A DNA stretch of 64,000 nucleotides from Candidatus Poribacteria bacterium (GTDB lineage: Bacteria; Poribacteria; WGA-4E; WGA-3G): the NCBI GenBank assembly GCA_965214095.1, contig OZ243938.1, positions 1,824,001-1,888,000 of the forward strand, read 5' to 3'. The notes under the pieces were generated by a model. It did no database searches. It was not told the DNA's origin and saw only the letters and a list, made by a program, of their open reading frames with translations. Shown here in pieces: positions 34,956-50,527 of this stretch. The translations under genes and the position numbers were made by a program. Position 1 is the stretch's first letter. Every line of letters starts with the position of its first letter.

Positions 34956-35400
34956 GACGGGTACTCCCAGAATGAAAGTGATGTTAGAACTGATTTCCTC
35001 CTTAAGCAACGACATAAATTATACTACAAGATTACAGTAAATGCAAGAAATTTGCCATATATAGGATATGTAATTATTTTGTGAAATGATGTATTATCTT
35101 GAAGCGTGGAATTCATCTCAATCAATACTAAATGTACTTGCTTATGGTATTTGGAGGGCTTACAATTCCCTTGCCACAGAGGATAATAGTTTAGAGACAA
35201 ATTGCAAGTGGAACAGAAAAGTAATATAACGCAATAAGTAGTTTTGGGATTTTGCATTTTTTCAAGAATTTTGCAATTTGGTTTGTTTTTCAAAGACAAT
35301 AGTATAACTATATTAAAGCAATTTTCTTACCTATTTAGGTTCATCTTTATCACTACGTGGAATCCTAAAAATATCTCTAATTATATCTAGTGTTTTAGAG

Positions 35401-36845
35401 CAATACCTTCGCCAAAATTAGTTGAATAAAATGGGTTTTTGTCTTATAGTTTTACACTATATAACAAAAAAGGACAAAAACCCATGTCAGAAATTATAGC
35501 ACTTTTTTCAGTTCTTAATCTATCTATATCTAAAACAGCGATCCGTCAGTTATGTCAAGTTGTCCTTGCACTGCTTGCGATGACAGGACGGATCACCATG
35601 TTAAATATCTCTCGTTGGACTTCAAAAGGAGGTAGTTACCGCACTATTCAACGCTTTTTCAATACGGTGTTGCCTTGGTCGGCAATGTGCTGGACGTTTT
35701 TTCGCACACACTTGCTTGATCCTGATAGTGTTCATATCTTAGTAGGCGACGAAGTCGTTAGAAACAAAGATGGCAAATGCACCTATGGTTTATCGCGCTT
35801 TTTTTCTTCATTGCATGGGAAAAGCATTCCCGGTTTATCGTTTTTAGCCATATCCTTAGTCAGTGTTCCTCGGCGGCGTTCCTACCCGATGACTATTGAA
35901 CAAATCGTTCGGTGTGAAACAACTTCAAATCCTGGTGCTTCTCCGACTGAAAAGTCAGACAACACCCAGACAAAACAATCTATACGCGGGCGTCCAAAAG
36001 GGAACCGAAACAAAAATAAAAGGGATGTCGTCCTCAGTGATACTTTGAAACAACTTCAAACGATACTCAAAGAGGTGCTACACCTCATTGATAACTTGAT
36101 ACCCATCCGTTATTTTGTCCTGGATGGATATTTTGGGAATAATAACATTTTACAAATGGTCCATCAATGTGGTCTCCATCTTATTTCAAAACTGCGTGCC
36201 GATGCTGCATTGTATCTTCCCCCGACGACCTCTTACAAGCGCAGACGCCTCGCAATCTATGGAGAACGGATACATCCGCATAAGATTGATGAAAAGAACG
36301 CTGTTTGGACACAAACAGTGGACAACCTGAGAACCGATGTGTATCAAATGGAACTACGCCACAAAAAGTTCCCCGACCCATTGAATGTCGTTTGTATCAA
36401 AAAAACAAACCTATCCACGAAACAGCAGGCACACGTCTTATTGTTCAGTTCTGATTTAGCACTTGACGCAGAAAAAATGATAGACTATTATTCACTCCGT
36501 TTTCAAATCGAGTTCAACTTTCGTGATGCCAAACAACATTGGGGTCTGCAAGGTTTCATGAATGTCAACAAAACCCCTGTGAACAATGCGGCAAATCTGT
36601 CAATGTTTATGGTAAATGTCAGTGCAAAACTCATGGAAAAGGACAGATGTCAGAATCCCGAATATAGTGTATTAGATCTTAAATCGCACTACCGAGGTCT
36701 GAAATATGTGCAGGAAATATTAAAAGGACTTCCGCAGAAACCTGAACCTATTGTTATTCAGCAAATCATTGGCCGTCTGAGTTCAATAGGTGCTATTCAC
36801 AACACGCAAGCCAATCTTAATCCTGGATAATTGGCGAAGGTATTG
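35401..36845 (+). mobile_element. Insertion sequence, 1445 bp, with an IS4/IS701-like DDE transposase
   Basis: Perfect 15-bp TIR caataccttcgccaa / ttggcgaaggtattg; no flanking direct repeat. Confidence 0.9.
35484..36830 (+). CDS. DDE transposase
   Basis: LVGDEV, VLDGYFG and YSLRFQIEFNFRDAKQ (Y-R-E-K type motif). Confidence 0.9.
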   Translation: MSEIIALFSVLNLSISKTAIRQLCQVVLALLAMTGRITMLNISRWTSKGGSYRTIQRFFNTVLPWSAMCWTFFRTHLLDPDSVHILVGDEVVRNKDGKCTYGLSRFFSSLHGKSIPGLSFLAISLVSVPRRRSYPMTIEQIVRCETTSNPGASPTEKSDNTQTKQSIRGRPKGNRNKNKRDVVLSDTLKQLQTILKEVLHLIDNLIPIRYFVLDGYFGNNNILQMVHQCGLHLISKLRADAALYLPPTTSYKRRRLAIYGERIHPHKIDEKNAVWTQTVDNLRTDVYQMELRHKKFPDPLNVVCIKKTNLSTKQQAHVLLFSSDLALDAEKMIDYYSLRFQIEFNFRDAKQHWGLQGFMNVNKTPVNNAANLSMFMVNVSAKLMEKDRCQNPEYSVLDLKSHYRGLKYVQEILKGLPQKPEPIVIQQIIGRLSSIGAIHNTQANLNPG

Positions 36846-37778
36846 GTATCCCTAACCCGTTTGAGATCTTTGTCTATTCGATTTCCATAGGTATGATGTG
36901 CCTCGTCAGAAAAAACACCTAAATTCGGTAGACTTACAATTTTCTCAAGTCGATGGTTCTCTTCTAATTCCGCCTGTTTTTCTTTCTGTTCTTTTTCATT
37001 TTTTCTCTTAAACTCCTGGAATAGATTATTTTTTTCTTCGTATTTTTTCGCAAAATGATTTTTTCAGTGTTCGTGATGATGATATTGAAGACGCTACCGC
37101 GTTGAACGGGCATATCTTTTGCCGCTACTGGTGCGAATTTTCGGTTTCCCATAAATTCCTGATATAGACTCGGTGGTAGAATCGTATCGTAAGGAACGTC
37201 ACTGATTTTGCGCAGACTTCCAATGATAGTTGTTCCGGGTGCAAAGACAAGTGCGTTTTTCATAAAATCGCTGTCAGGATAACGGAACGCCATTGCGAAT
37301 TCGGTTGCGATCATTGTTCCGATGAGTGTCGTCTTACCTGTGCCCATTGCAAGTGCGAAAATATAACTCGGATACTTCAACGACACAGCCTCATGAACCG
37401 GATTAATTCGCTTCTGCTTAACAAATGCTTGATCATTTTTTACACGTTCCAGAACCGATTCAATGTCTGGCACCCACTGTAACTCGCCAGCACTCATAGG
37501 AATACCCAACGCTTCGCAAAATACTGCGATATCACCACTGTAGTAATGCTTGTATAGTTCTACAATATGCGGTGTATTTCTCAGCAGTCGTAATACCAGT
37601 AGATTTCTAATGCGTAGAATTGTGGTTCTCGCAGATATTTGAGCTGCCCTTCCTCAGGTGAATTGCTATCAAACTGCCAATTCAGTATTTCTCCGATGAG
37701 TGGATATTCGGAACACGAGTATCCCGATTTACGCCATTTCTCTGTATCGTTCCGAAGTTTTTCATACAAGTGTTCCAT
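36846..37778 (-). pseudogene. Type III restriction enzyme Res-like DEAH helicase, frameshifted and truncated by the IS
   Basis: LREPQ (37581..37778), LAMGTGKT (36964..37509) and FSDEAHH near 36900 lie in separate fragments, and the gene is cut at the IS right end. Confidence 0.85.
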
Positions 37779-37802
37779 ATAAGTCTATCTCCTTGTTTAT
37801 GA

Positions 37803-38984
37803 TCATATTTTTTGAATAAAGCCTTCTATCTGTTTACCTACTCGATCTATAACCCATGATTCATTTATAGGAATATTAAAAGCCCAGATTAGTTGATGAA
37901 TTAATTCTTCAACAATGTCTATCAATTTGTCAGAATTATTGAAATCACGTGGCATGCATTGCGTAGACGCATAAACTTCCATATCAGAACACACTGGACC
38001 ATCCGGTATATTTTCTGTGATTTTTTGTGCATATAATAACCTTTCATCAGGATCATAGAGTTGTATTCGTATGACATTCTGCAACCTTGCTGACACCTCA
38101 ATATTCCCTACATATTCACATTTCTCGTAGAGTCTTTTTGCCTGATATATTAGAACACTAATGGTACGAATAAAATCACAATAATTAACAGCTACACCAA
38201 TAAGTTCATGATGCACATTTGATTGCTGATGCTCAGGTAATACACTTCTATGATAGACAATACCATATTCATTTAATTCAAAAAATATGTTGTCATTTCT
38301 AACATTAGCGACTCCGCCTGCGACCTTTCTGGGTGGGTATGTCACACGCTCAAGTAACTCATAAATCTCCGATGTTGTAATCACAGGACGATACGGGTAT
38401 ACAGGCTGTGCAATGACCGTTAGACTCGGCTTTTTTTGTACACTGAAACGTTTTGCCCTTTCTTCAATACGATCCAATATTTGCTTCGCATTCTCCTGTG
38501 AATCCTCACGACGTTTGAACATATACGCAATTCTGTTCATATCTGCAAGGTCATAAGGTTCTGTAATGCTACCCGTGCGAATATAGGTTCTTTTTGAGTT
38601 TTGAATCGCATGCGGGGCTTGAATACTTTCATCGACACGAACTATGACGACTATGTTAGTAGAATTAGGAACATCAACGATTTTTATTTCTGGTATAACG
38701 GCAGGATAAATTCCCTCAAGTGAACTCTGCTGAATTCGCTCCTCAAATCCAGGTACGTTGGGTATACCCTTAATAGGAAAAATAACTTGGTTCTTTGTTT
38801 GTTCGGATTCAACTCCTATTAAAAATATTCCCCCGAAGGTATTTGCAAAAGCCGACACCATTTTTGGTATGTGTTTTTTTGCGTCTATTTGCCTTTTATA
38901 CTCAACCCGTACTCCTTCTGGTTGCTCTCTACAAAAAGTGTTGATATCTTCAAATGTGATTTCATCTAATGATTTTGTAAACAT
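37803..38984 (-). CDS. AlbA_2/Schlafen-like domain protein
   Basis: EGVRVEYK, SAFANTFGGIFLIGV, APHAI and YIRTGS motifs. Confidence 0.88.
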   Translation of the reverse strand: MFTKSLDEITFEDINTFCREQPEGVRVEYKRQIDAKKHIPKMVSAFANTFGGIFLIGVESEQTKNQVIFPIKGIPNVPGFEERIQQSSLEGIYPAVIPEIKIVDVPNSTNIVVIVRVDESIQAPHAIQNSKRTYIRTGSITEPYDLADMNRIAYMFKRREDSQENAKQILDRIEERAKRFSVQKKPSLTVIAQPVYPYRPVITTSEIYELLERVTYPPRKVAGGVANVRNDNIFFELNEYGIVYHRSVLPEHQQSNVHHELIGVAVNYCDFIRTISVLIYQAKRLYEKCEYVGNIEVSARLQNVIRIQLYDPDERLLYAQKITENIPDGPVCSDMEVYASTQCMPRDFNNSDKLIDIVEELIHQLIWAFNIPINESWVIDRVGKQIEGFIQKI

Positions 38985-39019
38985 ACTATAACTTCCTCCA
39001 TCAAAAGCATATCAGACAC

Positions 39020-39409
39020 CTACGATTCATCAGGATTTTCCTGTGGTAGCATTTTATCCACACGACTGCGTATATCTGTTTCGCGCATCTGAATTTCTTT
39101 GTCGACTAACACCCCGTAGTCTACCCACCTTCGAATTAGACTTTCCAACGTTTCCATTGCCTCTTCAATTTTGGCAATTTCTGTTTCTTGTGATTTTTCT
39201 AAAGATTCTGATTTAAATGGTCTGAGTTCTTCAAATTTTGGTGAAAGATTTAAACCTAAACTTTCCACTAATTTCACGCTGTTAGTTAAATTCCTGACAT
39301 CGCCTTGCACTTGTCCTTTTATCCGATTCAGCACAGATTGGAATTCTTTTCGTGCCTCAATGTATTCGTTCCGCAAATCTACTCTATCATCGTTATTCAT
39401 TGTTTCCAT
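39020..39409 (-). CDS. Hypothetical helical protein
   Basis: 129-aa ORF codirectional with the AlbA_2 gene. Confidence 0.55.
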   Translation of the reverse strand: METMNNDDRVDLRNEYIEARKEFQSVLNRIKGQVQGDVRNLTNSVKLVESLGLNLSPKFEELRPFKSESLEKSQETEIAKIEEAMETLESLIRRWVDYGVLVDKEIQMRETDIRSRVDKMLPQENPDES

Positions 39410-39826
39410 CCTTCCATTTTTTATTTATATGATAAACTCACCCACGCACAAACTATTTCCGCAGCAATTATTTTTCGGTCCAAAGACAAACTGTGCATAT
39501 TCACTATGTAACAAGTAAATTACTTGGCACTTTAGCACATCATTGCCACACGGATGGATAGGGTCGGTTTGCGAGGTATTCAACGCTAATCCTTGGCATG
39601 AGGTTATAATCAATCAACGGCTTTAGCAAGTTTGACTCCAATGTGTGCAGTGAACGGTTGCCGATTAGAAAATGAGATACCTTATTTGTCGCTTCCATAT
39701 AATGAGGGTATTTGTACTGCTTGTGACATGTTGGCTCTTTCTATCCTTTTTCAACGATAGTTTTGATATTTCCGTGTGAATTCTTTTCTAAACCGGCCAA
39801 GTTGACCAACGAGTTTATTTAACACT

Positions 39827-40792
39827 TCATTTTTGATACAGAAAAACCAAAACATTAGAACCAAGACCCCGTTTATGGGTTCCAGGTAAAATTATTGCTT
39901 CAACGTAGACTTCAATGTTTTGATTTGAAGAATTGATGGTAACAGGACCTTGATATGGAAACCGAGTTTCAGATACTTTGTAGATTGGAGATGATTCCTC
40001 AATTGATTTGTATTTAGGTATGTAAGTGGAGAAGTTTTTTGTTGGAAAAAAATACTGAACTCGTAACTTTTTCAGCGGTGGTTCCCAATGAAAATCATTA
40101 AACAACTTTAATTGATTCTTTTCTTGTTCAATTTTATCTATTTCTGTAGGTTTGTGACTGTAAGACAGGACCATCATAGCGCAAGACTCAAGACTTGTTG
40201 TAATCATACGAATAGATGTTGCTTCTATAGAGGTTTCATACCTTCTTGAAAGTTCTTGCAGAGATTTTAATGATACACCCATTCCTTTAACATCCAAATC
40301 AAATTCAGGTGTAGGCATGATAATTTCACTTGCTCCGAGATCACACAAAAACTCTACCTCATTTTGAGGATCGAATTGACCACTCCGGTGGCGTGCCTTG
40401 TACTGGTCTTGATAACCGGGGAATAAAGTATGAGCAATTTCATGAGCTATTGAAAAGTTTTGCCGTGCTTTAGGTTTCTTTGGGTTGTATCGGATTACCA
40501 TCCTCCCATTCTCTGCGGGGTGGAGTTCCGCGTCTTCACTATGTGTTAATTCATCAGATTTCTCACACGGGATTCCCAATATAGATGCAAGAACTTGTGG
40601 ATTGAAAGGCGGCCCATCCCATGATATACCCTTAGCTTCAGCAATATCCCTAGCTTCAGCAAGCTTTTCCTGGGCTAATTTCCGGATAATTTGTTCCGGA
40701 TCTTGAGAAATGTCTGAATAACATTCTATGAGTCGCACAACTGAATTATGAGAATAATACTTCTTACCAACTTTAATAATATTATGTTTCAT
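39827..40792 (-). CDS. ImmA/IrrE-family zinc metallopeptidase, CapP-like
   Basis: RQNFSIAHEIAH (HExxH) and EFLCDLGASEIIMP; the MKHNII start overlaps the HTH gene stop (ATGA). Confidence 0.88.
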   Translation of the reverse strand: MKHNIIKVGKKYYSHNSVVRLIECYSDISQDPEQIIRKLAQEKLAEARDIAEAKGISWDGPPFNPQVLASILGIPCEKSDELTHSEDAELHPAENGRMVIRYNPKKPKARQNFSIAHEIAHTLFPGYQDQYKARHRSGQFDPQNEVEFLCDLGASEIIMPTPEFDLDVKGMGVSLKSLQELSRRYETSIEATSIRMITTSLESCAMMVLSYSHKPTEIDKIEQEKNQLKLFNDFHWEPPLKKLRVQYFFPTKNFSTYIPKYKSIEESSPIYKVSETRFPYQGPVTINSSNQNIEVYVEAIILPGTHKRGLGSNVLVFLYQK

Positions 40793-41193
40793 TGTCTCTT
40801 CATCACATATCGGATCGATGTCAGAATATGCTCCCAATCATCAACAGTCTTTGGTTGGTTACCTCTATACCGAATATTCATTAGCATTCGCACATCCTCC
40901 CTTTGAATATCAAGTTCTTTTCCTCGTGTATTAATAAATTTGCGTAATACATCCGGAATATCTTCATCTTCAAAGTCTTCCGCATAAACGCGCACAGGCT
41001 GGTCAAGGAGATCTGCAATAGTTATACCAAGTGCCGAAGCAATTTTAAGCAGTATCTCAGCTGAAGGTTGCTTACTCAGACTGTTTTCAAGCTGTGATAA
41101 ATAAGCTTTAGAGACATCAGCTTTTTCAGCCAACTGGTTTAGAGAAAATCCTTCTTTTTCCCGGAGTTTTTTGATCTTTTGACCTAGAAGCAT
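40789..41193 (-). CDS. XRE-family HTH repressor, CapH-like
   Basis: LREKEGFSLNQLAEKADVSKAYLSQLEN HTH plus a C-terminal helical domain. Confidence 0.92.
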   Translation of the reverse strand: MLLGQKIKKLREKEGFSLNQLAEKADVSKAYLSQLENSLSKQPSAEILLKIASALGITIADLLDQPVRVYAEDFEDEDIPDVLRKFINTRGKELDIQREDVRMLMNIRYRGNQPKTVDDWEHILTSIRYVMKRQ

Positions 41194-41263
41194 GTGAATT
41201 TCCTTCTTATTTTATGTTTATCTTATTATTTTACACGAATTTGTTCGTTATTACAAACTTTTC

Positions 41264-41293
41264 TTGACAAATGGGTTTGTTATAGCGTATAAT
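41264..41293 (+). promoter_or_regulatory. Consensus sigma70 promoter of the MBL/E2-E1-JAB/patatin operon
   Basis: TTGACA (41264)-18 bp-TATAAT (41288). Confidence 0.75.
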
Positions 41294-41374
41294 AGTATTC
41301 GTAAAATAGAACACCTGTATGGTTATTGAGTGATGTAATATATGAAAACGAATTCCGAAAATGGAGGAAAAGTT

Positions 41375-42484
41375 TTGCACAAATTAACAATTTACCCGTT
41401 GGGAAACGCTGATTGTTGCTTAATTGATCTTGAAAATGGTCAAAAGATACTAATAGACTACGCCAACGTAGGTAATTCAGAGGACGATGATGATTTACGG
41501 ATTGATTTACCTAAAGCACTAGGTGAAGATCTTGAGGATACAGACAAGGATTTTTTTGATATAGTGGCATTTACACATGCAGACGAAGATCACATTAAGG
41601 GGTTTTCTGAGTTCTTCTATCTGGAACACGCACAAAAGTATCAGAGCGATGATAGGTTTAAAATCAATACACTTTGGGTCCCCGCAGCAATCATTCTTGA
41701 AAAATCACCTTCCACAGATGACCATAAAATTTTACGGGCAGAAGCACGGCACCGACTGAAAGAGGGATCTGGAATTCGTGTCTTTTCTAAACCTGAAGCT
41801 TTAGAGGAATGGCTGGAAGAGCAAGATTTGAGGTTAGAAGATCGAGAGGAACTAATCACGCACGCTGGAGTAACCGTCCCTGGATACAAAAAGTCATCAG
41901 AGGGTGTTGAATTTTTCGTACACGCGCCTTTTTCTGATAGCATTGAGGATGATGTAATTGAGAGGAACGATGCAGCACTTGTAGTTCAAGCCACTTTTCA
42001 ATGTGAAAATGTTGAAACTCAATTGATTCTAGGGTCAGATATTACTCATGAAGTCTGGAATGATATTGTCCGAGTAACGCAACATTACAATCGAGATGAC
42101 CGGTTGAAATGGGACATATTTAAAATCTCACATCATAGTAGTTACACAGCACTGAGCGATACAAAAGGGACAACGAAAACTACCCCTGTGGAAAAAGTTA
42201 AATGGCTATTTGAACAAGGGCACGATAAGGCAATATTAGTTTCAACGAGCGATCCGATTCCATCGGAAGATACAACTCAACCACCACATCGGCAAGCATC
42301 AAACTATTATAAAGACGTTGTTAAGAAAATTGACGGTGAATTTAAGGTGACAATGGAACACCCGAAAAAATCCGAACCTAAACCACTTGCCATTACTATT
42401 GACAGTTCAAAAGCAACAATAGTGAAACGAAGTACAGGCGGTACTAATAATATTACTAAGCAACGTTCTCCAAGATTTGGATAA
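41375..42484 (+). CDS. Metallo-beta-lactamase-fold (ComEC-like) hydrolase ending in ...RSPRFG
   Basis: LGNADC, FTHADEDHIKG, GSD and KISHHSS motifs; TTG start after GGAGG (the ORF track starts at 41342). Confidence 0.85.
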   Translation: MHKLTIYPLGNADCCLIDLENGQKILIDYANVGNSEDDDDLRIDLPKALGEDLEDTDKDFFDIVAFTHADEDHIKGFSEFFYLEHAQKYQSDDRFKINTLWVPAAIILEKSPSTDDHKILRAEARHRLKEGSGIRVFSKPEALEEWLEEQDLRLEDREELITHAGVTVPGYKKSSEGVEFFVHAPFSDSIEDDVIERNDAALVVQATFQCENVETQLILGSDITHEVWNDIVRVTQHYNRDDRLKWDIFKISHHSSYTALSDTKGTTKTTPVEKVKWLFEQGHDKAILVSTSDPIPSEDTTQPPHRQASNYYKDVVKKIDGEFKVTMEHPKKSEPKPLAITIDSSKATIVKRSTGGTNNITKQRSPRFG

Positions 42485-44729
42485 TATTTCTATGAAACAA
42501 GAATTCTGTAAAATTGATGGCGAAGTTGTTTCTATTGATGATGTTAATATATCAAAAGCAAAGGACTTCGCCAATTCAGTCATATCTTCGACTTTCGCAC
42601 ATTTTATTGAGTGTAGACGAACAAATGCTAATAATGAGATCATCGTTTTCAACGCTGAAGTCGAAATTGGTCAAAAGACCGTATACGACATAAAACCTCT
42701 TGAAAGAATCGCGGTTGAGTTTGATGTATCTGATAACTTCATGCCAGAAGTGTTAGCACTCCGTAAGAACTTTCCCTCCGTGCCACATATTAATCTACGA
42801 TCTAGAGAATTTCCAAGAAGTTTGTGCGTAACAGAACTTCCATACAGTGAGTTAAAACTGCAATGGACTGGAATAACTTTTGTTGAAGACATTAGAAGAT
42901 GGTTGGCAGAAGCAGCCAAAGATACTCTTCATGCTGAAGACCAACCCTTAGAGCCACTACTTGGGACGGCAAAAGATATTATCGTTCTTCCATACGATTT
43001 GTTCACAAGAGGCAGCATTTCTGAGCCACTGATTATTCCCATAGAAAATAAAATAAACGGACGCAGTATATATATTGCAGAACGTCACGTTGATATAGAC
43101 CAGAATCCATTAAAATATGTTGCAACTGGCTTCCTAAGCGACTGCTTAACCCATGGCATTATTAGTAAGGAACCAGCGAATCTGTACGAATTACACCAGT
43201 TTTTAGAATGTGGTAATCTCGATCTATTAAAGGAGATACAACAGCGTTTACACAAGTGGAGAAATGACATAAGAGCAGACGATATCTTATCTGCAAAGCT
43301 AATCCTGATTGTAGAACTACCGAAATCAAGGTACAGAAATACCTCACAGGAAACCACCGAGTACAAAGCTTTTTTAATTCAGAAATCGATAGAGGAAATT
43401 GGTTGCGAACTTGGTTTGTGGACAGCACATGATGGTTATGCTGTCCCGATTCTCGGTATCAATCAGCTTGAGAAAGGTGATACCATTTCAGTAGACATGC
43501 TTAATCCTGTCTTCTCACTTTCAAGTGAATTTGCTGCTCAACTTAATGGTTTTTCTTCAAGATCTAATACAAAAATAACTGCAGTTGGTTTAGGTGCTCT
43601 TGGTTCACAGGTTTTTATGAACATGGTTCGAGCTGGTCAAGGTCAGTGGACATTGGTTGACAAAGACATCTTGCTTCCGCACAATCTCTCTCGTCATGCC
43701 CTTGACGGTTTTTCTATTGGTTTCCCTAAAGTTCACGGTCTCGCTGTAAAAGCGAATAAAACAGTAGACGGGAATCCAATTGCTGACTGGATAGCTGCTG
43801 ATGTAATAAATCCTTCAGAATCTCAAGAAAACCTGCAAAAAATGAATGGAGCATTTAGCACGGCTGAAATTATCTTAGATGCTTCGGCTTCGGTACAAGT
43901 TGCACGATATTTAGTTTATAATGTTGATTCATCAGCTCGACGAATATCGATATTTCTGAACCCGCAAGGAGCAGATGTCACCTTATTAGCGGAAGATATA
44001 CAACGGAGCGCCACACTTGACTCTATAGAGATGCAATACTACCGACACCTTATAAATAATGACTATTTGGCAGATCATCTAAAGAGGAATGGTGAACGTA
44101 TTCGTTATGCGACTTCATGTCGTGATGTTAGCTATACTATTCCACAAGATTTTGTAGCACTGCAAGCCGCAATATGTAGTCGCGCAGTCCATCAATTAAC
44201 GTCTAATGATCAGGCGTTTCTGTCAATATGGCGAACTGACGAAGAACAATTCAGCGTGAAAAAATACTCATTCACTGTGAAAAAAACTATTAATTCTCAA
44301 AAAGGTGAATGGACATTATGTACCGATGAGGGATTCATCAAAAAAGTTCACGATGAACGTGAAAAGAAACTTCCAAACGAAACAGGAGGTGTGTTGGTTG
44401 GATCGTATGATATGCAGCGGAAAATCGTCTATGTTGTCGATTGTCTACCTTCTCCCTCAGATAGCGAAGAATGGCCAACTCACTATATTCGCGGCTGTCA
44501 AGGGTTACGTTCGCGAATAGAAGAAATACAGCAGATCACAGAAAACCAATTAAGATATGTTGGTGAATGGCATTCTCATCCACCGGACTGTAGTGTTAAA
44601 CCAAGCCAAGATGATCGAAAAGGCTTCAAGTGGATATCACATTATATGAAGCAGGATGGTTTACCACCTTTGTTGCTCATTGTAGGTGATACCGAAAAAT
44701 ATGCATTTTACCTAGAAGAAATTGGTTAA
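42477..44729 (+). CDS. Prokaryotic E2 - E1 (ThiF) - JAB fusion protein
   Basis: E2: FPSVPHIN...RSLC. E1: VGLGALGS, VDKDILLPHNLSRH, ILDASAS, TSCRD. JAB: ETGGVLVG, GEWHSHP...PSQDD. Confidence 0.9.
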   Translation: MDNISMKQEFCKIDGEVVSIDDVNISKAKDFANSVISSTFAHFIECRRTNANNEIIVFNAEVEIGQKTVYDIKPLERIAVEFDVSDNFMPEVLALRKNFPSVPHINLRSREFPRSLCVTELPYSELKLQWTGITFVEDIRRWLAEAAKDTLHAEDQPLEPLLGTAKDIIVLPYDLFTRGSISEPLIIPIENKINGRSIYIAERHVDIDQNPLKYVATGFLSDCLTHGIISKEPANLYELHQFLECGNLDLLKEIQQRLHKWRNDIRADDILSAKLILIVELPKSRYRNTSQETTEYKAFLIQKSIEEIGCELGLWTAHDGYAVPILGINQLEKGDTISVDMLNPVFSLSSEFAAQLNGFSSRSNTKITAVGLGALGSQVFMNMVRAGQGQWTLVDKDILLPHNLSRHALDGFSIGFPKVHGLAVKANKTVDGNPIADWIAADVINPSESQENLQKMNGAFSTAEIILDASASVQVARYLVYNVDSSARRISIFLNPQGADVTLLAEDIQRSATLDSIEMQYYRHLINNDYLADHLKRNGERIRYATSCRDVSYTIPQDFVALQAAICSRAVHQLTSNDQAFLSIWRTDEEQFSVKKYSFTVKKTINSQKGEWTLCTDEGFIKKVHDEREKKLPNETGGVLVGSYDMQRKIVYVVDCLPSPSDSEEWPTHYIRGCQGLRSRIEEIQQITENQLRYVGEWHSHPPDCSVKPSQDDRKGFKWISHYMKQDGLPPLLLIVGDTEKYAFYLEEIG

Positions 44730-45903
44730 CATTAAAATGGAATGTAAAACGTCAGAAAATGATTTGAAAATAGGAATAGCCTTATCAGGTGGAGGCGTTA
44801 GAGCTTCTGTTTTTCACTTGGGGGTTCTTGGTAGACTTGCAGAGGACAAACTCTTGGAGAATATTACGCGCATTTCAACTGTATCTGGAGGAACACTTGT
44901 AACAGGGATGATTTTCTCAATCACAGGATACAAATGGCCGACCAGTGAGTTTTTTCTTCAGCAATGTCTTATCCAGGCGCGCGACTATTTTACTAAAAAA
45001 GATATTCAAACCAAGGCATTCGTTTGGGGTATTCGCAAACCGCTCTCTCTTATTCAAAAAAGAGCGAATTTAATTTCCAAAAGCATTCAAGATTGTTGGA
45101 ATATCTCAGGAAACCTTAATGACCTCCCGCTCCAACCCCGATGGACTATAAACGCCACTACGTATGAATCAGGCAAAAACTGGCGTTTTATCCCGCAGCG
45201 TAGGATGGGTGATTATATCATAAATCATGTCAAAAACCCAAATATTCTTTTAGCCGATGCAATGGCTGCCTCAGCGGCTTATCCGGGATTAATTGGTCCA
45301 CTTACCTTAGATACGCGAAAATACAGCTGGTATGAGTATGAAGGTAAAACGCAAATTCAAACTCAACCGAAATTCAAGAAACTTCACCTTTGGGATGGAG
45401 GGCTCTACGAAAATTTAGGAGTAGAACCTCTCTTCAAAATTGGAGAAAAACACAAATATCACGATGATTGTAATTTTTTGGTTGTAAGTGATGCTTCTAA
45501 TCCTATCGGCAGCAAAAGGCATACTGGGATGTTTTGGAAAAGTGCAATTCGACTTATTGACATTTCAATGGACCAAGTTAGAAGTCTAAGAACCCGCTCT
45601 CTGATAAATCACTTTGAAAATAATGTAAATTCGGGCGTTTACTTCAAAATAGGGAATACTGGGCGTAAAATATTAGAAGCAGTGGAAACAAACGTTAATA
45701 TAATTGATAAGTTAACAGAAAATAGTTTGTCACCAAGAGATGCACATTTGGCAGAAAATTTTGAAACTACCCTAAGGAAACTATCAGTAGACGAATATGA
45801 CTTACTATATCAACATGGTTGGGAGGTTGCAAACTTCACACTTCAGGCACGATGCCCAAATCTTTTCCAAAACATGTTTTGGAAACCCAACTTCTTAGTT
45901 TGA
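44722..45903 (+). CDS. Patatin-like phospholipase
   Basis: LSGGGVRA, STVSGG (nucleophile Ser), ASAAYP and DGG motifs. Confidence 0.9.
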   Translation: MVNIKMECKTSENDLKIGIALSGGGVRASVFHLGVLGRLAEDKLLENITRISTVSGGTLVTGMIFSITGYKWPTSEFFLQQCLIQARDYFTKKDIQTKAFVWGIRKPLSLIQKRANLISKSIQDCWNISGNLNDLPLQPRWTINATTYESGKNWRFIPQRRMGDYIINHVKNPNILLADAMAASAAYPGLIGPLTLDTRKYSWYEYEGKTQIQTQPKFKKLHLWDGGLYENLGVEPLFKIGEKHKYHDDCNFLVVSDASNPIGSKRHTGMFWKSAIRLIDISMDQVRSLRTRSLINHFENNVNSGVYFKIGNTGRKILEAVETNVNIIDKLTENSLSPRDAHLAENFETTLRKLSVDEYDLLYQHGWEVANFTLQARCPNLFQNMFWKPNFLV

Positions 45904-46204
45904 CCTTCAGTTTCACCGCCATTCCAGCCCACCCATCAGACAAACGAAACATCGGTATTTCCACGAAATTATGCAGGACAACTTGATTTGGAAGCACAAA
46001 CCTACCAGCAGAGTAAACAATCGTATCGGAACAGATTTAACAATGTTTTACCGAGTATGGTAAAGTTTAGAATTAAAGGGTATTGGTTAAATAATGATGC
46101 GGTAATTAGTGGGTACCCTCTGAACCGCTCTGCATCACATTTCAATGAGAGTAGAGTTAATGATAACATTTATGACAAAAATCGTCAATCAAACTGATAA
46201 ACTG

Positions 46205-46355
46205 GGGCGTGTAGAGTTTTTGGTATGAATATCACAGTAACCATTGTATTGCGGGTCTCCGTGCCCCGCAATTGATGGGAGGAAAGATGGCGGGGCACGG
46301 AGACCTCGCAATACAATGGATGGTCCGAAGTTAGAGCCAAGAACTTTACACACTC
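46205..46355. mobile_element. MITE with IS256-like ends and an inverted REP pair
   Basis: Ends gggcgtgtagagtttttgg / ccaagaactttacacactc; flanks ataaactg / acaaactg; internal gggtctccgtgccccgc...gcggggcacggagacc. Confidence 0.7.
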
Positions 46356-46632
46356 ACAAACTGATTTTGTTTGACAGATGTAGCTAAAACCTACCCTTAT
46401 TGAAAACAAACTCGCTGCTCTATAGAGGACAACATGAAGAATAGCCCAAGATGTCAACACACTCACTCTGTCAGAAACGGGTTCGTCAAAACGAAACAAC
46501 GCTATAAATGCAAAAACTACTGTTATCAATAGACGCGCACAACACCACGGGGAAACCACAAGCACAGAAAACTCTTACCGTTCTCTTAAATTGCCACGGC
46601 ATCTCAATGAATGCTATCTCAAAATTTATCGG

Positions 46633-46745
46633 AATTAGTCGTTTTGGGATTAAGCATACTTATGAAAAGGCTTTAGAGACTTTTCATAAGTATGTAGCAT
46701 AAATATAGGTTTATAGTAATTTTTCAAATCCCAAAACGACTAATT
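46633..46745. mobile_element. MITE of about 110 bp inside the IS1 remnant
   Basis: Perfect 19-bp inverted repeat aattagtcgttttgggatt / aatcccaaaacgactaatt; the outer AATT may be the target duplication. Confidence 0.8.
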
Positions 46746-47139
46746 GCGAAACTTATTAGATGCAACGTAACAACTTTGCTTCAATGGATACGCACATTTG
46801 CTAAAAAACAGACACCGAAACAAACACTCACACCCGGCACCACCGTCTGCTTGAAACTTGATGAGATGTGGCACAATATTGGGAACAAGAAAAACAAACT
46901 CTGAATATGGAAGGCACTTGACAGAAACATAGGATACCTCATTGAATGGAAATGTGGTGGTCGTGATAGACAAACCCTTGAAAAACTCACAGCAAGGATC
47001 TCACCCCTCAATGCTAAGATATATTACACAGACAAATGGCAGGTCTATGCGTTGGTTCTACCTGCTGCAAGACATGTTCAGGATAAAGCGGAGACGCATC
47101 GCATTGAACGCGACAATGGTCAAATGCGCCACTAGTTCG

Positions 47140-47326
47140 GGGTGTGTAAAGTTATTGGCATTAACTTCGGACCATCCATTGTCTTGCCAAATCAACGGTA
47201 TGAATGCGCTTATGGCATTCCCCGGGTCTCCGTACCCCGGTATCTTCAATCTACCAACAAGGGCGGGGCACGGAGACCCCGTAAGACAATGACTGATGAG
47301 ATGTGTGCCAAAAACTTTACACACTC
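47140..47326. mobile_element. MITE with IS256-like ends, inverted relative to 46205..46355
   Basis: TIR gggtgtgtaaagttattggca / tgccaaaaactttacacactc with a 9-bp TSD actagttcg; it splits the InsB frame. Confidence 0.85.
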
Positions 47327-47635
47327 ACTAGTTCGGACGCTTCAAGCTCAAGTCCATTATTGTTTCCAAAAGCATAGAAATGGTGAATTTGACGATTGCT
47401 TGGTCCACACGATTGCATGTCAATGGCAACGTGTTTGACATTTTAAAACTCGGCGGAGTAGAAAACATGAATATCATTATTTAAACAATACCTTCTAGGA
47501 TTAATTAGACACTCTGCATCAAGCGAGGTTAAGAAACCGCCAAATCAACGGTATGAATGCTATTTAGCATTCTCTGTCTCCGTAGCGATGAAAGTATCTA
47601 TTTATTTTGAGTATTATATTACTATAAGCTTTATC

Positions 47636-49090
47636 TTACTTAACCAAAACTACCCAATGCGATTTTGTGGGTGGAGATAACGTTATGCTATCACTGAACG
47701 GAATTTTCTGTTCTTTTTTCCATTCGGCTTTTCGGATATTTAGCCATCTGATTGAAATTGTATCAGCATCTGTCTTTTCAACAGCACTAAGGTGCAACTC
47801 AACCGACCCTCCTTTAGGAAAATAGACCGCATATTCCTTTCCAAGGTTAACAAAGGCATAAGCTTCGTTTTCTTCTCTGTTGGAGAGCAGGTGATTGTGG
47901 GGATGACTCTTAAACACATCCATTTCGTCTGTGATCATTCGCATACTCTTGATATTCGCTTGCGACAGTTTGCTTAATCCGAGTCCATTAGGCGGACGGT
48001 GAGACCGCGCTGATGCGCATCCACCAAAGATATTTCGCCAGAATCGCGCCAACCCATCTTGTGTCTTACCATATTTCCCGGTGTCAGCACCGTAAATCTT
48101 AACATTATTGATGGGACGTAACGGTGAAAGATTTACTCTATATTGTTGTGCATTATCCCAATGTGTCTGGCCTCTTTGAGTGTTATTTTGTGATATATCA
48201 CAAAACGAATATATCTCTGGATGATCCTTTGTATTTCGATGTTGCCTATGATTTATTTCCCACGGATTCCACATTTCAGTCGTTTCAACACCGCGTCCAA
48301 CCTCTGCTGCTCGACTCTTGATGTAAGTTGACCAGTATTCACCCCATGCAGGCGTAACTGCAGTCTCATTGTCCATACAGTAGAGTATGTGTCCATAAGG
48401 TAGTGTCTCTGAAAGAAGCTTATCCACATATTTTTGTTGATATTTTAGGACAATTTCCTGATTGTTCTTTTTCGGCACAGACCAGAAGAAGTTATTTTCC
48501 GCTGCACTTGGATGACTGTCAACAACAGTGGGTAACTCTGTTTCCTCTGTGGTGTAATTGCTATTATTTTTCGGATTAAATGGATTGACATCCCAATAAT
48601 CTCTGTAATAGTTGAAAGTTGCCCACACTTCAATCTGAACGATAATATCCAACTCGTGAGTCCATTTGATGAAGTTACCAAAACGTGTCCAAAATTCATT
48701 GCTCCACTGATTTAAGTCATACAGATCACCGACTTTTTTAAAGGGAGGCACATCGACTGCCTCAGTCCATCCCATCGTAGACCTAACATAGTTTCCACCG
48801 ACAGACTTCAATAATTCAAGATGCTCTTTGAGATTCGGTATCTGAAACAGATTGTCATCAACTGAACCACCGAGTAGCAGCACAGGTTCGCCTTTATATT
48901 GCCAGTAACGCGGATTATCTTTATAAATCTGGATTCTGTTTTTCTCCATCTCTATATCCTCGTTGGCTTCGGCATCTGAATCCGCTGTTATGCAAACAGA
49001 CATGAATAGCAGTTGAGACAATACAAATATGCTAACTAAGAGTGGTCGGCACAGACATTTCATTAGATTGTCTCTCAAATTTGAATACAT
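47636..49090 (-). CDS. Secreted putative glycoside hydrolase (clan A-like TIM barrel plus C-terminal beta domain)
   Basis: Signal-like N-terminus, NPRYWQYKGEP, GGNYVRSTM and MDNE motifs. Confidence 0.65.
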   Translation of the reverse strand: MYSNLRDNLMKCLCRPLLVSIFVLSQLLFMSVCITADSDAEANEDIEMEKNRIQIYKDNPRYWQYKGEPVLLLGGSVDDNLFQIPNLKEHLELLKSVGGNYVRSTMGWTEAVDVPPFKKVGDLYDLNQWSNEFWTRFGNFIKWTHELDIIVQIEVWATFNYYRDYWDVNPFNPKNNSNYTTEETELPTVVDSHPSAAENNFFWSVPKKNNQEIVLKYQQKYVDKLLSETLPYGHILYCMDNETAVTPAWGEYWSTYIKSRAAEVGRGVETTEMWNPWEINHRQHRNTKDHPEIYSFCDISQNNTQRGQTHWDNAQQYRVNLSPLRPINNVKIYGADTGKYGKTQDGLARFWRNIFGGCASARSHRPPNGLGLSKLSQANIKSMRMITDEMDVFKSHPHNHLLSNREENEAYAFVNLGKEYAVYFPKGGSVELHLSAVEKTDADTISIRWLNIRKAEWKKEQKIPFSDSITLSPPTKSHWVVLVK

Positions 49091-50527
49091 CTATTTCACT
49101 TGAACCAAAACTGTCCAATGGACTTCGGTCGGTGCACTTAGCGTGATACTATCACTATAGGGAATTTCCGATTCTATTTTCCATTCGCTTTTATTGATGT
49201 TTAACCATCTGATTTTCACATTTTTAGCATCTTCCTGCTTACCAACACTCAGGTTAAGATCAACCAAACCACCTTTTGGAAAATAGACAGCATATTCCTT
49301 TCCAGGATTGGCAATCGTATATGCTTCGTTATCTTCTCGATTAGATAGCAGTTCATTGTTAGGTTCGCATGTAAAGATGTCCATTTCGTCAGTAATCATA
49401 CGCATACTCTTGAGATGTGGTTGTGCAACTTTGCTCAAACCGACTCCGCTATCCGGACGGTGAAACCGTGCTGATGCGAATCCGCCAAAGATGTTTCGCC
49501 AGAACCTTTCCAGTCCATCTCTTGTACTACCGAATCGTCCACCATTAGCACCGTAAATCTTAATATTGTTGATAGGACGTATCGGAGATAGTTCTGCGCG
49601 TATTTTCTGTGCATTATCCCAATGCTTTTGACGTTTTTGGTGGTTATTCTGCGATATATCACAGAAGGAATAGGTTTCTGGGTGGTCAAAAGTCGCTTTA
49701 TGTTTCTCGTCAGACAAGTCCCACGGATCCCACATCTCAGTGGTTTCAACAACGCGACCCGCATCAGTTGCCTTTTTCTTGATATAAGTTGACCAGTATT
49801 CACCCCAGGAAGCTGTAACAGCCGTCTCGTTGTCCATGCAATAGAGTATATGTCCATACTGAAGTGTCTCCTCAAGAAGCTTATCCACAAACTTTTCCTG
49901 ATATTTCAATACTATCTCTTGATTCCGTTCTTTAGGAACTGACCAGAAAAAGTTGTTCTTCGCTGCAACAGGATGGTCTTTGACAACAGTAGGTAATCCC
50001 GATTCTTCCACGGTGTAATTGCTGTTATTGATAGGGTTGAAAGGATTCACAGCCCACGGTTCGCGGTAATAGTTGAAAGTTGCCCACACCTCAATCTGCA
50101 CAATAATATCCATCTCGTGTGTCCACTTAATAAAGTCACGAAAACGCTTCCAGAATTCATCGTTCCACTGATTTAAGTCATATTTGTCGCCGACTATTTT
50201 GTGCGGTGGCACATCACCTTCATCGACCCAACTCATCGTAGACCGCACATAATTACCACCGACAGACTTCAATAACTCCAGATGTTCTCTCAGATTCGGT
50301 ATCTGGAATAGGTTATCTTCAACTGAACCACCAATTAGCAGGATGGGTTCACCCTTATACTGCCAATAACGCGGATTATCTTTGTAAATCTGTATCCTAT
50401 CTTTTTCCATTTCTACATCCTTCTTGGCTTGGGTATCCCATGCTACTATGGAGCAAACGGATACGAATATTAACAGAAACAACACAAGTTTGCCGATAGG
50501 CATGTGTTGACTGTATCGGCTTTTCAT
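49091..50527 (-). CDS. Secreted putative glycoside hydrolase, tandem paralog of 47636..49090
   Basis: Colinear with high similarity, including the MDNE motif. Confidence 0.65.
   Translation of the reverse strand: MKSRYSQHMPIGKLVLFLLIFVSVCSIVAWDTQAKKDVEMEKDRIQIYKDNPRYWQYKGEPILLIGGSVEDNLFQIPNLREHLELLKSVGGNYVRSTMSWVDEGDVPPHKIVGDKYDLNQWNDEFWKRFRDFIKWTHEMDIIVQIEVWATFNYYREPWAVNPFNPINNSNYTVEESGLPTVVKDHPVAAKNNFFWSVPKERNQEIVLKYQEKFVDKLLEETLQYGHILYCMDNETAVTASWGEYWSTYIKKKATDAGRVVETTEMWDPWDLSDEKHKATFDHPETYSFCDISQNNHQKRQKHWDNAQKIRAELSPIRPINNIKIYGANGGRFGSTRDGLERFWRNIFGGFASARFHRPDSGVGLSKVAQPHLKSMRMITDEMDIFTCEPNNELLSNREDNEAYTIANPGKEYAVYFPKGGLVDLNLSVGKQEDAKNVKIRWLNINKSEWKIESEIPYSDSITLSAPTEVHWTVLVQVK

Follow-up and report, generated by a model that had tools for sequence, protein, structure and literature searches.

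The 6A-MBL systems of bacteria consist of a gene for a hydrolase of the metallo-beta-lactamase (MBL) fold followed directly by a gene for an E2-E1-JAB triple fusion. They are operon type 6a (row 6a) of Iyer, Burroughs and Aravind 2006, described in the relevant part of that paper as having "usually two genes" (PMC1779556), and passages of a review and a preprint, with van den Berg et al. 2024 as their source, name 6A-MBL as a phage defence of Pseudomonas aeruginosa that has been validated (PMC13276650; 10.1101/2025.09.30.679545). The locus considered here lies in a 64,000-nt stretch of contig OZ243938.1 from a Candidatus Poribacteria bacterium (assembly GCA_965214095.1, positions 1,824,001 to 1,888,000), referred to below as the window. 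Judged from its genes, it adds one more intact, ordinary member, of the Poribacteria type, to the 6A-MBL anti-phage family, with a patatin as third gene and control of the CapH/CapP type. Its E2-E1-JAB protein would probably conjugate the whole hydrolase, through the C-terminal Gly380, to other molecules, with the JAB domain reversing the reaction; this reading draws on sequence comparison and on analogy with related systems.

[quoted passage not shown] According to passages of Jenson et al. (PMC10097602), Cap2 and the last residue of cGAS, a Gly, become linked by a thioester, conjugation is lost when that Gly is deleted, and only operons with Cap2 and Cap3 show a conserved Gly or Ala at this end. 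The window locus and type II CBASS have in common a Cap2-like E2-E1 fold, a JAB peptidase, a substrate enzyme with a disordered, Gly-ended tail, an effector of the patatin class (CapV in CBASS), and CapH/CapP-like regulators. In contrast to CBASS, a ComEC-like MBL hydrolase takes the place of the CD-NTase, the parts corresponding to Cap2 and Cap3 are fused in one chain, and the patatin matches no PADLOC CapV model, with no cyclic-nucleotide signal inferable. CBASS identity was rejected because no CD-NTase model of Pfam, PADLOC or NCBIfam matched any of the operon's three proteins in a scan of the operon and its upstream neighbours.

The Bil/Bub systems also resemble the locus, in that E1, E2 and JAB act on a C-terminal Gly, and parts of two reports describe their JAB as both maturing the precursor and removing conjugates (PMC10557695; PMC11601596). 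They differ in the nature of the modifier, which in Bil/Bub is a small beta-grasp ubiquitin-like protein (Ubl), whereas here a 369-residue enzyme of unrelated fold would be conjugated.

As in other 6A-MBL operons, the window has an MBL gene and then, adjacent to it, a gene for the E2-E1-JAB fusion, and membership of the family follows from the scores of both core proteins, which exceed the curated equivalog cut-offs (NF058524 and NF058523). The window copy departs from the described type in its additional patatin cistron and its divergent CapH/CapP-like regulators, and in having Phe rather than the usual Ala as penultimate residue of the hydrolase. The core features are as follows, where pLDDT is the predicted local distance difference test score.

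41375..42484 (likely TTG start), plus strand: 6A-MBL enzyme, a ComEC-type MBL-fold hydrolase (NF058524.1, metal ligands, structural model, 9ic4, Shine-Dalgarno box)
42422..42481, plus strand: disordered C-terminal tail of the hydrolase, residues 361-380 (VKRSTGGTNNITKQRSPRFG; pLDDT <50 for 364-380)
42477..44729, plus strand: cap2_3 protein, E2-E1-JAB triple fusion, 750 residues as listed (NF058523.1, Pfam, 7to3_A)
42633..43010, plus strand: E2-like domain with invariant His104 and catalytic Cys117 (codon 42825-42827; Prok-E2_A, E 2e-20)
43563..44276, plus strand: E1 (ThiF-like) adenylation domain with catalytic Cys548 (codon 44118-44120; invariant columns, Cap2 profile matches)
44337..44687, plus strand: JAB/JAMM metallopeptidase domain, Cap3-like (Prok-JAB, E 7.2e-12; PADLOC JAB PDLC00890, E 4.7e-26)

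The open reading frame (ORF) of the hydrolase, 41342..42484 on the plus strand, has 380 residues, ends in ...ATIVKRSTGGTNNITKQRSPRFG and stops with TAA at 42482-42484; residue numbers follow this 380-residue ORF throughout. A GGAGGA Shine-Dalgarno box at 41363-41368 lies 6 nt upstream of the TTG at 41375, and the majority of homologues begin at the matching MHKLT, so that the true start is most likely this TTG and the protein 369 residues long. Against the NCBIfam model NF058524 ('6A-MBL_enzyme') the hydrolase scores 403.9 bits (cut-off 220, E 5.7e-121), with the model spanning residues 18-356 and the tail lying outside it. Residues D24, H79, D83, H84, H194, D233, H264 and H265, the metal ligands, are invariant in a 35-sequence alignment that includes the window copy. 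The AlphaFold2 model, made with a 35-sequence alignment (mean pLDDT 86.7, predicted template modelling score 0.87), has the alpha-beta/beta-alpha MBL fold and not the beta-grasp fold of Ubls.

In a Foldseek comparison with the PDB, the MBL domain of ComEC (9ic4) was the top match (E 3.3e-14), followed by the phosphorylcholine esterase Pce, and 9ic4 was also the only PDB match of the hydrolase sequence profile (E 1.6e-5). Because the metal ligands are invariant and both fold and profile match ComEC, the hydrolase is predicted to be a phosphodiesterase or nuclease-like enzyme of the ComEC type, intact and with a floppy tail. It shares its metal-binding motifs with the ComEC domain. ComEC itself, in contrast, is a membrane protein of about 830 residues that lacks a conjugation tail, whereas the hydrolase is soluble, free-standing and ends in P-R-x-G. 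Its closest relatives, among the genome-scan matches listed, come from Candidatus Poribacteria metagenome-assembled genomes.

The E2-E1-JAB gene as listed begins with a TTG at 42477, which overlaps the end of the MBL gene (stop 42484); alignment with its closest relatives (L001 and L002) points to the ATG at 42492, 7 nt past the MBL stop, as the likely start. With either start, the two genes are adjacent on one strand. The product scores 632.3 bits against the NCBIfam model NF058523 ('6A-MBL_cap2_3'; cut-off 320), and its Pfam domains occur in the order Prok-E2_A (53-178), ThiF (363-478) and Prok-JAB (621-737). The PADLOC E1-E2 and JAB models match it as well, while the NCBIfam Cap3 model NF050170 gives 33.4 bits, under its cut-off of 200. 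Among 34 aligned fusions, the invariant residues include His104 and Cys117 of the E2 domain, the Gly-rich ATP loop (G371/G373/G376), D395, D468 and Cys548/Asp550 of the E1 domain, and E635, H699, H701, S710 and D713 of the JAB domain. The window copy keeps all invariant residues of both the hydrolase and the fusion alignments.

The structural model of the fusion has a pLDDT of 89.2, with a single low-confidence loop (541-549, pLDDT <50) that contains Cys548. Its top Foldseek match is Enterobacter cloacae Cap2 in the entry titled 'Cap2-CdnD02 2:2 complex' (7to3_A, E 3.2e-26, 647 columns); the next are 7tqd, 7tsx and 7tsq, of which 7tsx and 7tsq are titled 'Cap2 bound to CdnD02 C-terminus'. A profile search of PDB sequences likewise placed Cap2 (7tsq/7tsx/7to3, E about 1e-18) ahead of MoeB. 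This ranking bears on the idea that the E1 domain performs some other C-terminal chemistry, such as thiocarboxylation of the MoaD/ThiS type or an MccB-like modification of the last residue, and conjugates no protein. The resemblance of the E1 domain to MoeB, ThiF and MccB lends the idea some substance. These proteins score more weakly than Cap2, however, which is best both by sequence profile and by fold; moreover, the E1 shares its chain with an E2 domain that has its catalytic Cys and with a JAB isopeptidase, and the operon showed no gene for a rhodanese or for sulfur transfer. Chemistry of this kind is therefore considered very improbable.

The association of hydrolase and fusion is strict. 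In all 142 loci with at least 600 nt after the hydrolase match (of 160 loci), an E2-E1-JAB match was found downstream on the same strand, and in 137 of these it lay within 400 nt.

At the C-terminal end of the hydrolase, the span 42410-42484 comprises residues K357-G380 and the stop codon, the ORF reads ...KRSTGGTNNITKQRSPRFG-stop at its end, and the Pro-Arg-x-Gly of the tail is encoded at 42470-42481. A preliminary description of this locus had proposed a folded domain with a flexible tail. The model agrees, since only residues 1-9 and 364-380 have pLDDT <50 in an otherwise confident structure whose final strand is 357-360. The same description singled out a terminal RFG. This copy does end in Pro-Arg-Phe-Gly, but the conserved motif is Pro-Arg-x-Gly and Phe is a minority variant, with P377, R378 and G380 being invariant or nearly so in alignments. 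Its further remark that the small terminal residue of CD-NTases often follows an aromatic one does not hold, as a passage of Jenson et al. states that penultimate residues vary (PMC10097602). The tail is the proposed site of E1 adenylation and conjugation.

Conservation of the tail was followed in several sets of relatives. A word-indexed search gave 2783 hydrolase homologues at E <=1e-3, of which the best 120 were examined; a genome scan contributed the best 80 of 321 relatives, with 78 complete C-terminal ends, and a metagenome scan the best 80 of 134, with 71 complete ends. For more distant relatives, cluster representatives at 50% identity were searched exhaustively with HMMER, which produced 741 matches at E <=1e-3; of the best 150, 70 had at least 340 residues. 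The motif was scored as the first [RK]xG within the last 18 residues; in sequences that have it twice (L033, L070), the extension therefore comes out slightly too long.

Conservation of the terminal Gly among homologues, without which the preliminary description would have had to be given up, is pronounced and well beyond what chance would give. The [R/K]-x-G motif occurs in 115 of 117 close homologues of at least 340 residues (the two exceptions being P0096 and the partial P0118), in 77 of 78 genome loci and in all 71 metagenome loci. Among the 115 motif-bearing close homologues, 86 stop at the Gly and 29 have extra residues; 42 genome loci and 34 metagenome loci stop there also. Counted by the last residue alone, 93 of the 120 close homologues are Gly-terminated (AG 76, MG 9, VG 5, FG 1, SG 1, NG 1). 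The hydrolase family thus ends, like the substrate enzymes of CBASS, in a conserved Gly or Ala. The penultimate position is Ala in 96/115 close homologues, 68/77 genome loci and 60/71 metagenome loci, compared to Phe in 2/115, 0/77 and 2/71, respectively. The linker preceding the motif varies and has a high content of Ala, Ser, Gly and Thr, and about 40% of homologues have 1-15 residues beyond the Gly, in the manner of a pro-peptide. In the distant representatives, 48 of 70 retain the motif.

Remote relatives on plasmids and viral contigs, with 23-28% identity, end in xG or xA plus 0-4 more residues, and their genes precede an E1 gene. Examples of plasmid tails are ...APRAGVSNQ (E. coli), ...KTYGK (C. 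perfringens), ...PHGAS (A. baumannii) and ...PAYA (Aeromonas), while those of viral contigs include ...GGYA, ...TYGSK, ...PRAGR and ...PRAGVKK. Two of the plasmid pairs, L198 (E. coli) and L200 (A. baumannii), are on conjugative or mobilizable plasmids, and the divergent regulator ahead of them is a WYL-domain protein instead of CapH/CapP. By tblastn, relatives were found in 274 plasmid records, 123 of them from Klebsiella.

A conserved gene end could in principle reflect a constraint on nucleotides rather than on protein, for example the need to couple translation to that of the next gene or to provide its ribosome-binding site. The spacing of the genes is compatible with this, since 0-10 nt separate the MBL stop from the following start codon in many loci; the window has this stop 7 nt ahead of the ATG at 42492, or overlapped by the TTG at 42477. 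Codon usage leads to the opposite conclusion. At the four motif positions, across 130 loci, every codon for Pro (4), Arg (6), Ala (4) and Gly (4) occurs, and because every synonymous codon is used, selection evidently acts on the protein. In addition, the motif persists in genes that have 1-15 more codons after it, or where gaps of at least 100 nt separate it from the next gene. The nucleotide-level explanation was rejected on the codon usage and has scarcely any probability left.

Paralogues provided a further comparison. When the PADLOC LmuA-MBL model was run against 176 genomes of the window's phylum, it picked, in addition to the ComEC proteins of about 830 residues, 12 proteins of 273-366 residues with near full-length matches. 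All 12 end in an acidic sequence (e.g., ...YPEEQEED) and lack the R-x-G tail. These LmuA-like paralogues are more distant than a same-family control would be, and 3 of the 12 lie directly behind a 6A-MBL operon.

The reading that the whole hydrolase is conjugated builds on this anatomy: an intact hydrolase with a P-R-x-G end, an intact E2-E1-JAB, strict co-occurrence of the two, and protein-level selection on the tail. By analogy with Cap2 and its CD-NTase, the E1 domain would bind the tail and adenylate Gly380 with ATP. The hydrolase would then move as a thioester to Cys548 of the E1 domain and on to Cys117 of the E2 domain, following which Gly380 would be joined to an amine of a target and the enzyme thereby primed or relocated. 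The fused JAB would undo the link and, in the approximately 40% of relatives with residues after the Gly, would also trim the precursor. Such extensions are expected if the protein is made as a precursor that JAB matures, in the way that part of PMC10557695 describes for BilC and its Ubl; the window hydrolase has the Gly as its last residue and would not have to be trimmed. The whole enzyme would take the role of ubiquitin, working like a Ubl without being one. The preliminary description had likewise cast the entire hydrolase as the modifier and placed writer and eraser in one polypeptide. The latter fits the Cap2-like E2-E1 and the JAB in a single chain with intact catalytic residues, and the former gains support from every comparative test that was run, among them the conserved disordered tail, the adjacent Cap2-like E2-E1-JAB and the tail-less paralogues.

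The same tail could alternatively serve as a tether, bound and perhaps adenylated or thioesterified by E2-E1-JAB but never passed on, so that the hydrolase is kept inactive until infection. A conserved tail and strict gene adjacency would fit any tail-dependent interaction, and the Discussion of PMC10097602 indicates that no target is known even for CBASS. For a mere tether, however, the invariant Cys117 and His104 of the E2 domain would be needless; the homologous CBASS machinery does make conjugates, as passages of the same paper report; and the post-Gly extensions argue that a free carboxylate is needed. A tether is unlikely on this balance, and conjugation of the hydrolase through Gly380 is preferred.

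Several observations count against conjugation, or against its extension to the patatin. One of the 78 complete ends in the genome scan (L066) lacks the [RK]xG motif, as do 22 of the 70 distant representatives in their last 18 residues. Of these 22, approximately nine have [FY]-[GA] at or near the end, and five, at 480-510 residues, are longer and have another C-terminal domain. A full-text literature search found no paper that demonstrates a conjugate of an MBL enzyme experimentally, with Ledvina 2023 and van den Berg 2024 beyond its reach. The patatin of the window matches no PADLOC model and no NCBIfam model, and its link to the hydrolase has its whole basis in gene order and gene fusion.

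The five longer forms (P0124, P0141, P0151, P0161 and P0184) have no Gly tail and carry an extra C-terminal domain of about 120 residues that has conserved Cys, His and Glu residues. When metagenome contigs, viral contigs and plasmids were scanned for them, only tail-bearing relatives or matches to the MBL core came up.

Conjugation in this system is not a new interpretation, and the idea is already in print (PMC11601596); what this copy adds is the patatin and the CapH/CapP-like regulators. If true, it would be the second case, after the CD-NTases, of bacteria conjugating a whole enzyme rather than a small ubiquitin-like protein, and it would bear on the first use of ubiquitin-type chemistry in immunity. 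The value of the window is mainly confirmatory, as a clean, intact copy from an uncultured lineage of sponge symbionts. The comparative set gained with it covers tail conservation with its codon control, the pro-peptide-like extensions, the linkage to E1, and the tail-less paralogues.

The third gene of the operon begins at the end of the fusion gene.

44722..45903, plus strand: patatin-like phospholipase, 393 residues as listed, alternative start ATG 44737 (Pfam Patatin, E 7.3e-16)

The protein has the oxyanion motif S22-G-G-G-x-R27, the nucleophile S55 and D225-G-G, which are invariant in 15/15 sequences. It is most likely a membrane-damaging executioner or co-effector, and it is not a recognisable CapV, since no PADLOC model matched it. 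Another genome of the genus has this patatin too, at 88% identity and again behind a fusion gene; its occurrence is sporadic, in 4/112 genomes of the family.

Third genes were surveyed in 105 loci in which the fusion gene is complete and followed by at least 900 nt. A patatin, a protein of about 250 residues with four transmembrane (TM) helices, or a TM protein of about 180 residues was found within 2.5 kb in 93 of them. Directly 3′ of the fusion gene, the patatin occurs 39 times, the four-helix membrane protein 28 times and the smaller membrane protein 6 times. A patatin gene with its start immediately after the E2-E1-JAB gene was recorded in 28 related loci. No NCBIfam model matched the third-gene products that were scanned. 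In two loci, L043 and L056, the E2-E1-JAB chain continues at its C-terminus into the patatin, giving proteins of 1165 and 1168 residues with all four Pfam domains. These four-domain fusions (L043:7148-10645 and L056:7097-10600) lie right behind an MBL gene whose product has the tail ...AQRVGFGRHD. The recurrent patatin or membrane protein and its fusions to the ligase are the part of the system least covered by curated definitions.

On this basis, a broader but doubtful proposal is that 6A-MBL, instead of being a two-gene 'nuclease plus regulator' system, is a CBASS-like relay of three parts, in which the MBL enzyme occupies the position of the CD-NTase as sensor and signal-maker and conjugation through Gly380 arms a separate membrane executioner. 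The executioner would be the patatin here and small multi-pass membrane proteins elsewhere, and the target could be the membrane or the effector. The proposal draws support from the third gene in 93/105 loci, from the patatin fusions, and from the apparent precursors in about 40% of relatives, which JAB would have to cleave before conjugation. Since the effector classes are the same as in CBASS, the hydrolase may act as an upstream signalling enzyme rather than as the executioner.

The TM gene of about 180 residues, found in the Poribacteria loci nearest to the window, was considered as a dedicated third gene and rejected, because it belongs to a separate TM-plus-MBL2 pair that also occurs away from E2-E1-JAB. 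This two-gene pair, seen in L167-L178 of the window's phylum (e.g., L174:1252-2853), consists of a membrane protein of about 165-190 residues, whose gene has no Pfam or NCBIfam match, and then an LmuA/Avs1a-like MBL of about 350-365 residues that ends in the acidic ...YPEEQEED. It is present in up to 12 genomes; in three (L174, L176 and L178) it stands directly behind a 6A-MBL operon, and elsewhere it stands apart. The pair may be a separate small defence module.

Upstream of the hydrolase gene, the operon is bordered by a promoter-like site and a divergent pair of regulatory genes.

39827..40837, minus strand: CapP-like IrrE/ImmA (M78) metallopeptidase, 336 residues, second gene of the divergent pair (Peptidase_M78, E 3e-14; PADLOC capP PDLC04141, E 6.7e-25)
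40789..41193, minus strand: CapH-like XRE-type helix-turn-helix (HTH) repressor, 134 residues, divergent from the operon (HTH_3, E 3.6e-16; PADLOC capH PDLC04142, E 6.3e-15)
41241..41293, plus strand: promoter-like site TTGACA-18-TATAAT at 41264-41293 (12/12 of the sigma-70-type consensus)

The site at 41264-41293 is the best of 17 promoter-like sites in 41100-46300. It is overlapped by an 18-nt inverted repeat (41241-41258 / 41275-41292; 78% complementary), and is a likely operator for the HTH repressor. Until stress sets in, the operon is most likely held in repression by the CapH/CapP-like pair. Such regulators are found in a minority of relatives, with CapH-like genes in 10/80 genome loci and CapP-like genes in 7/80.

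The base composition of the window delimits no clear island, the operon having a GC content of 0.38-0.40 compared to 0.36-0.46 over the window, and Rfam gave no match in 35000-48000. Just upstream of the CapP-like gene, on the minus strand at 37803-39409, are a gene for a Schlafen AlbA_2-domain protein (393 residues, Pfam E 1.3e-17) and a preceding one for a predicted coiled-coil protein of 129 residues. Together with the 6A-MBL operon, this pair suggests a small defence island. Farther out, a DDE_5 transposase gene (35439..36830, plus strand) stands beside the minus-strand ORFs 36964..37509, with a Walker-A-like GTGKT, and 37581..37778. The two ORFs resemble fragments of a larger NTPase (nucleoside triphosphatase)/helicase gene, possibly a defence gene broken by an insertion sequence.

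On the other side of the operon, past the patatin gene, is a stretch of about 1.7 kb that lacks a long ORF and contains imperfect inverted and direct repeats of about 45 nt (46209-46353 and 47142-47322), two arms of which, 46308-46353 and 47142-47187, are 91% complementary. It is followed at 47636-50527, on the minus strand, by tandem paralogous genes for very similar proteins of 484 and 478 residues with signal-like N-termini, which are probably duplicated secreted enzymes.

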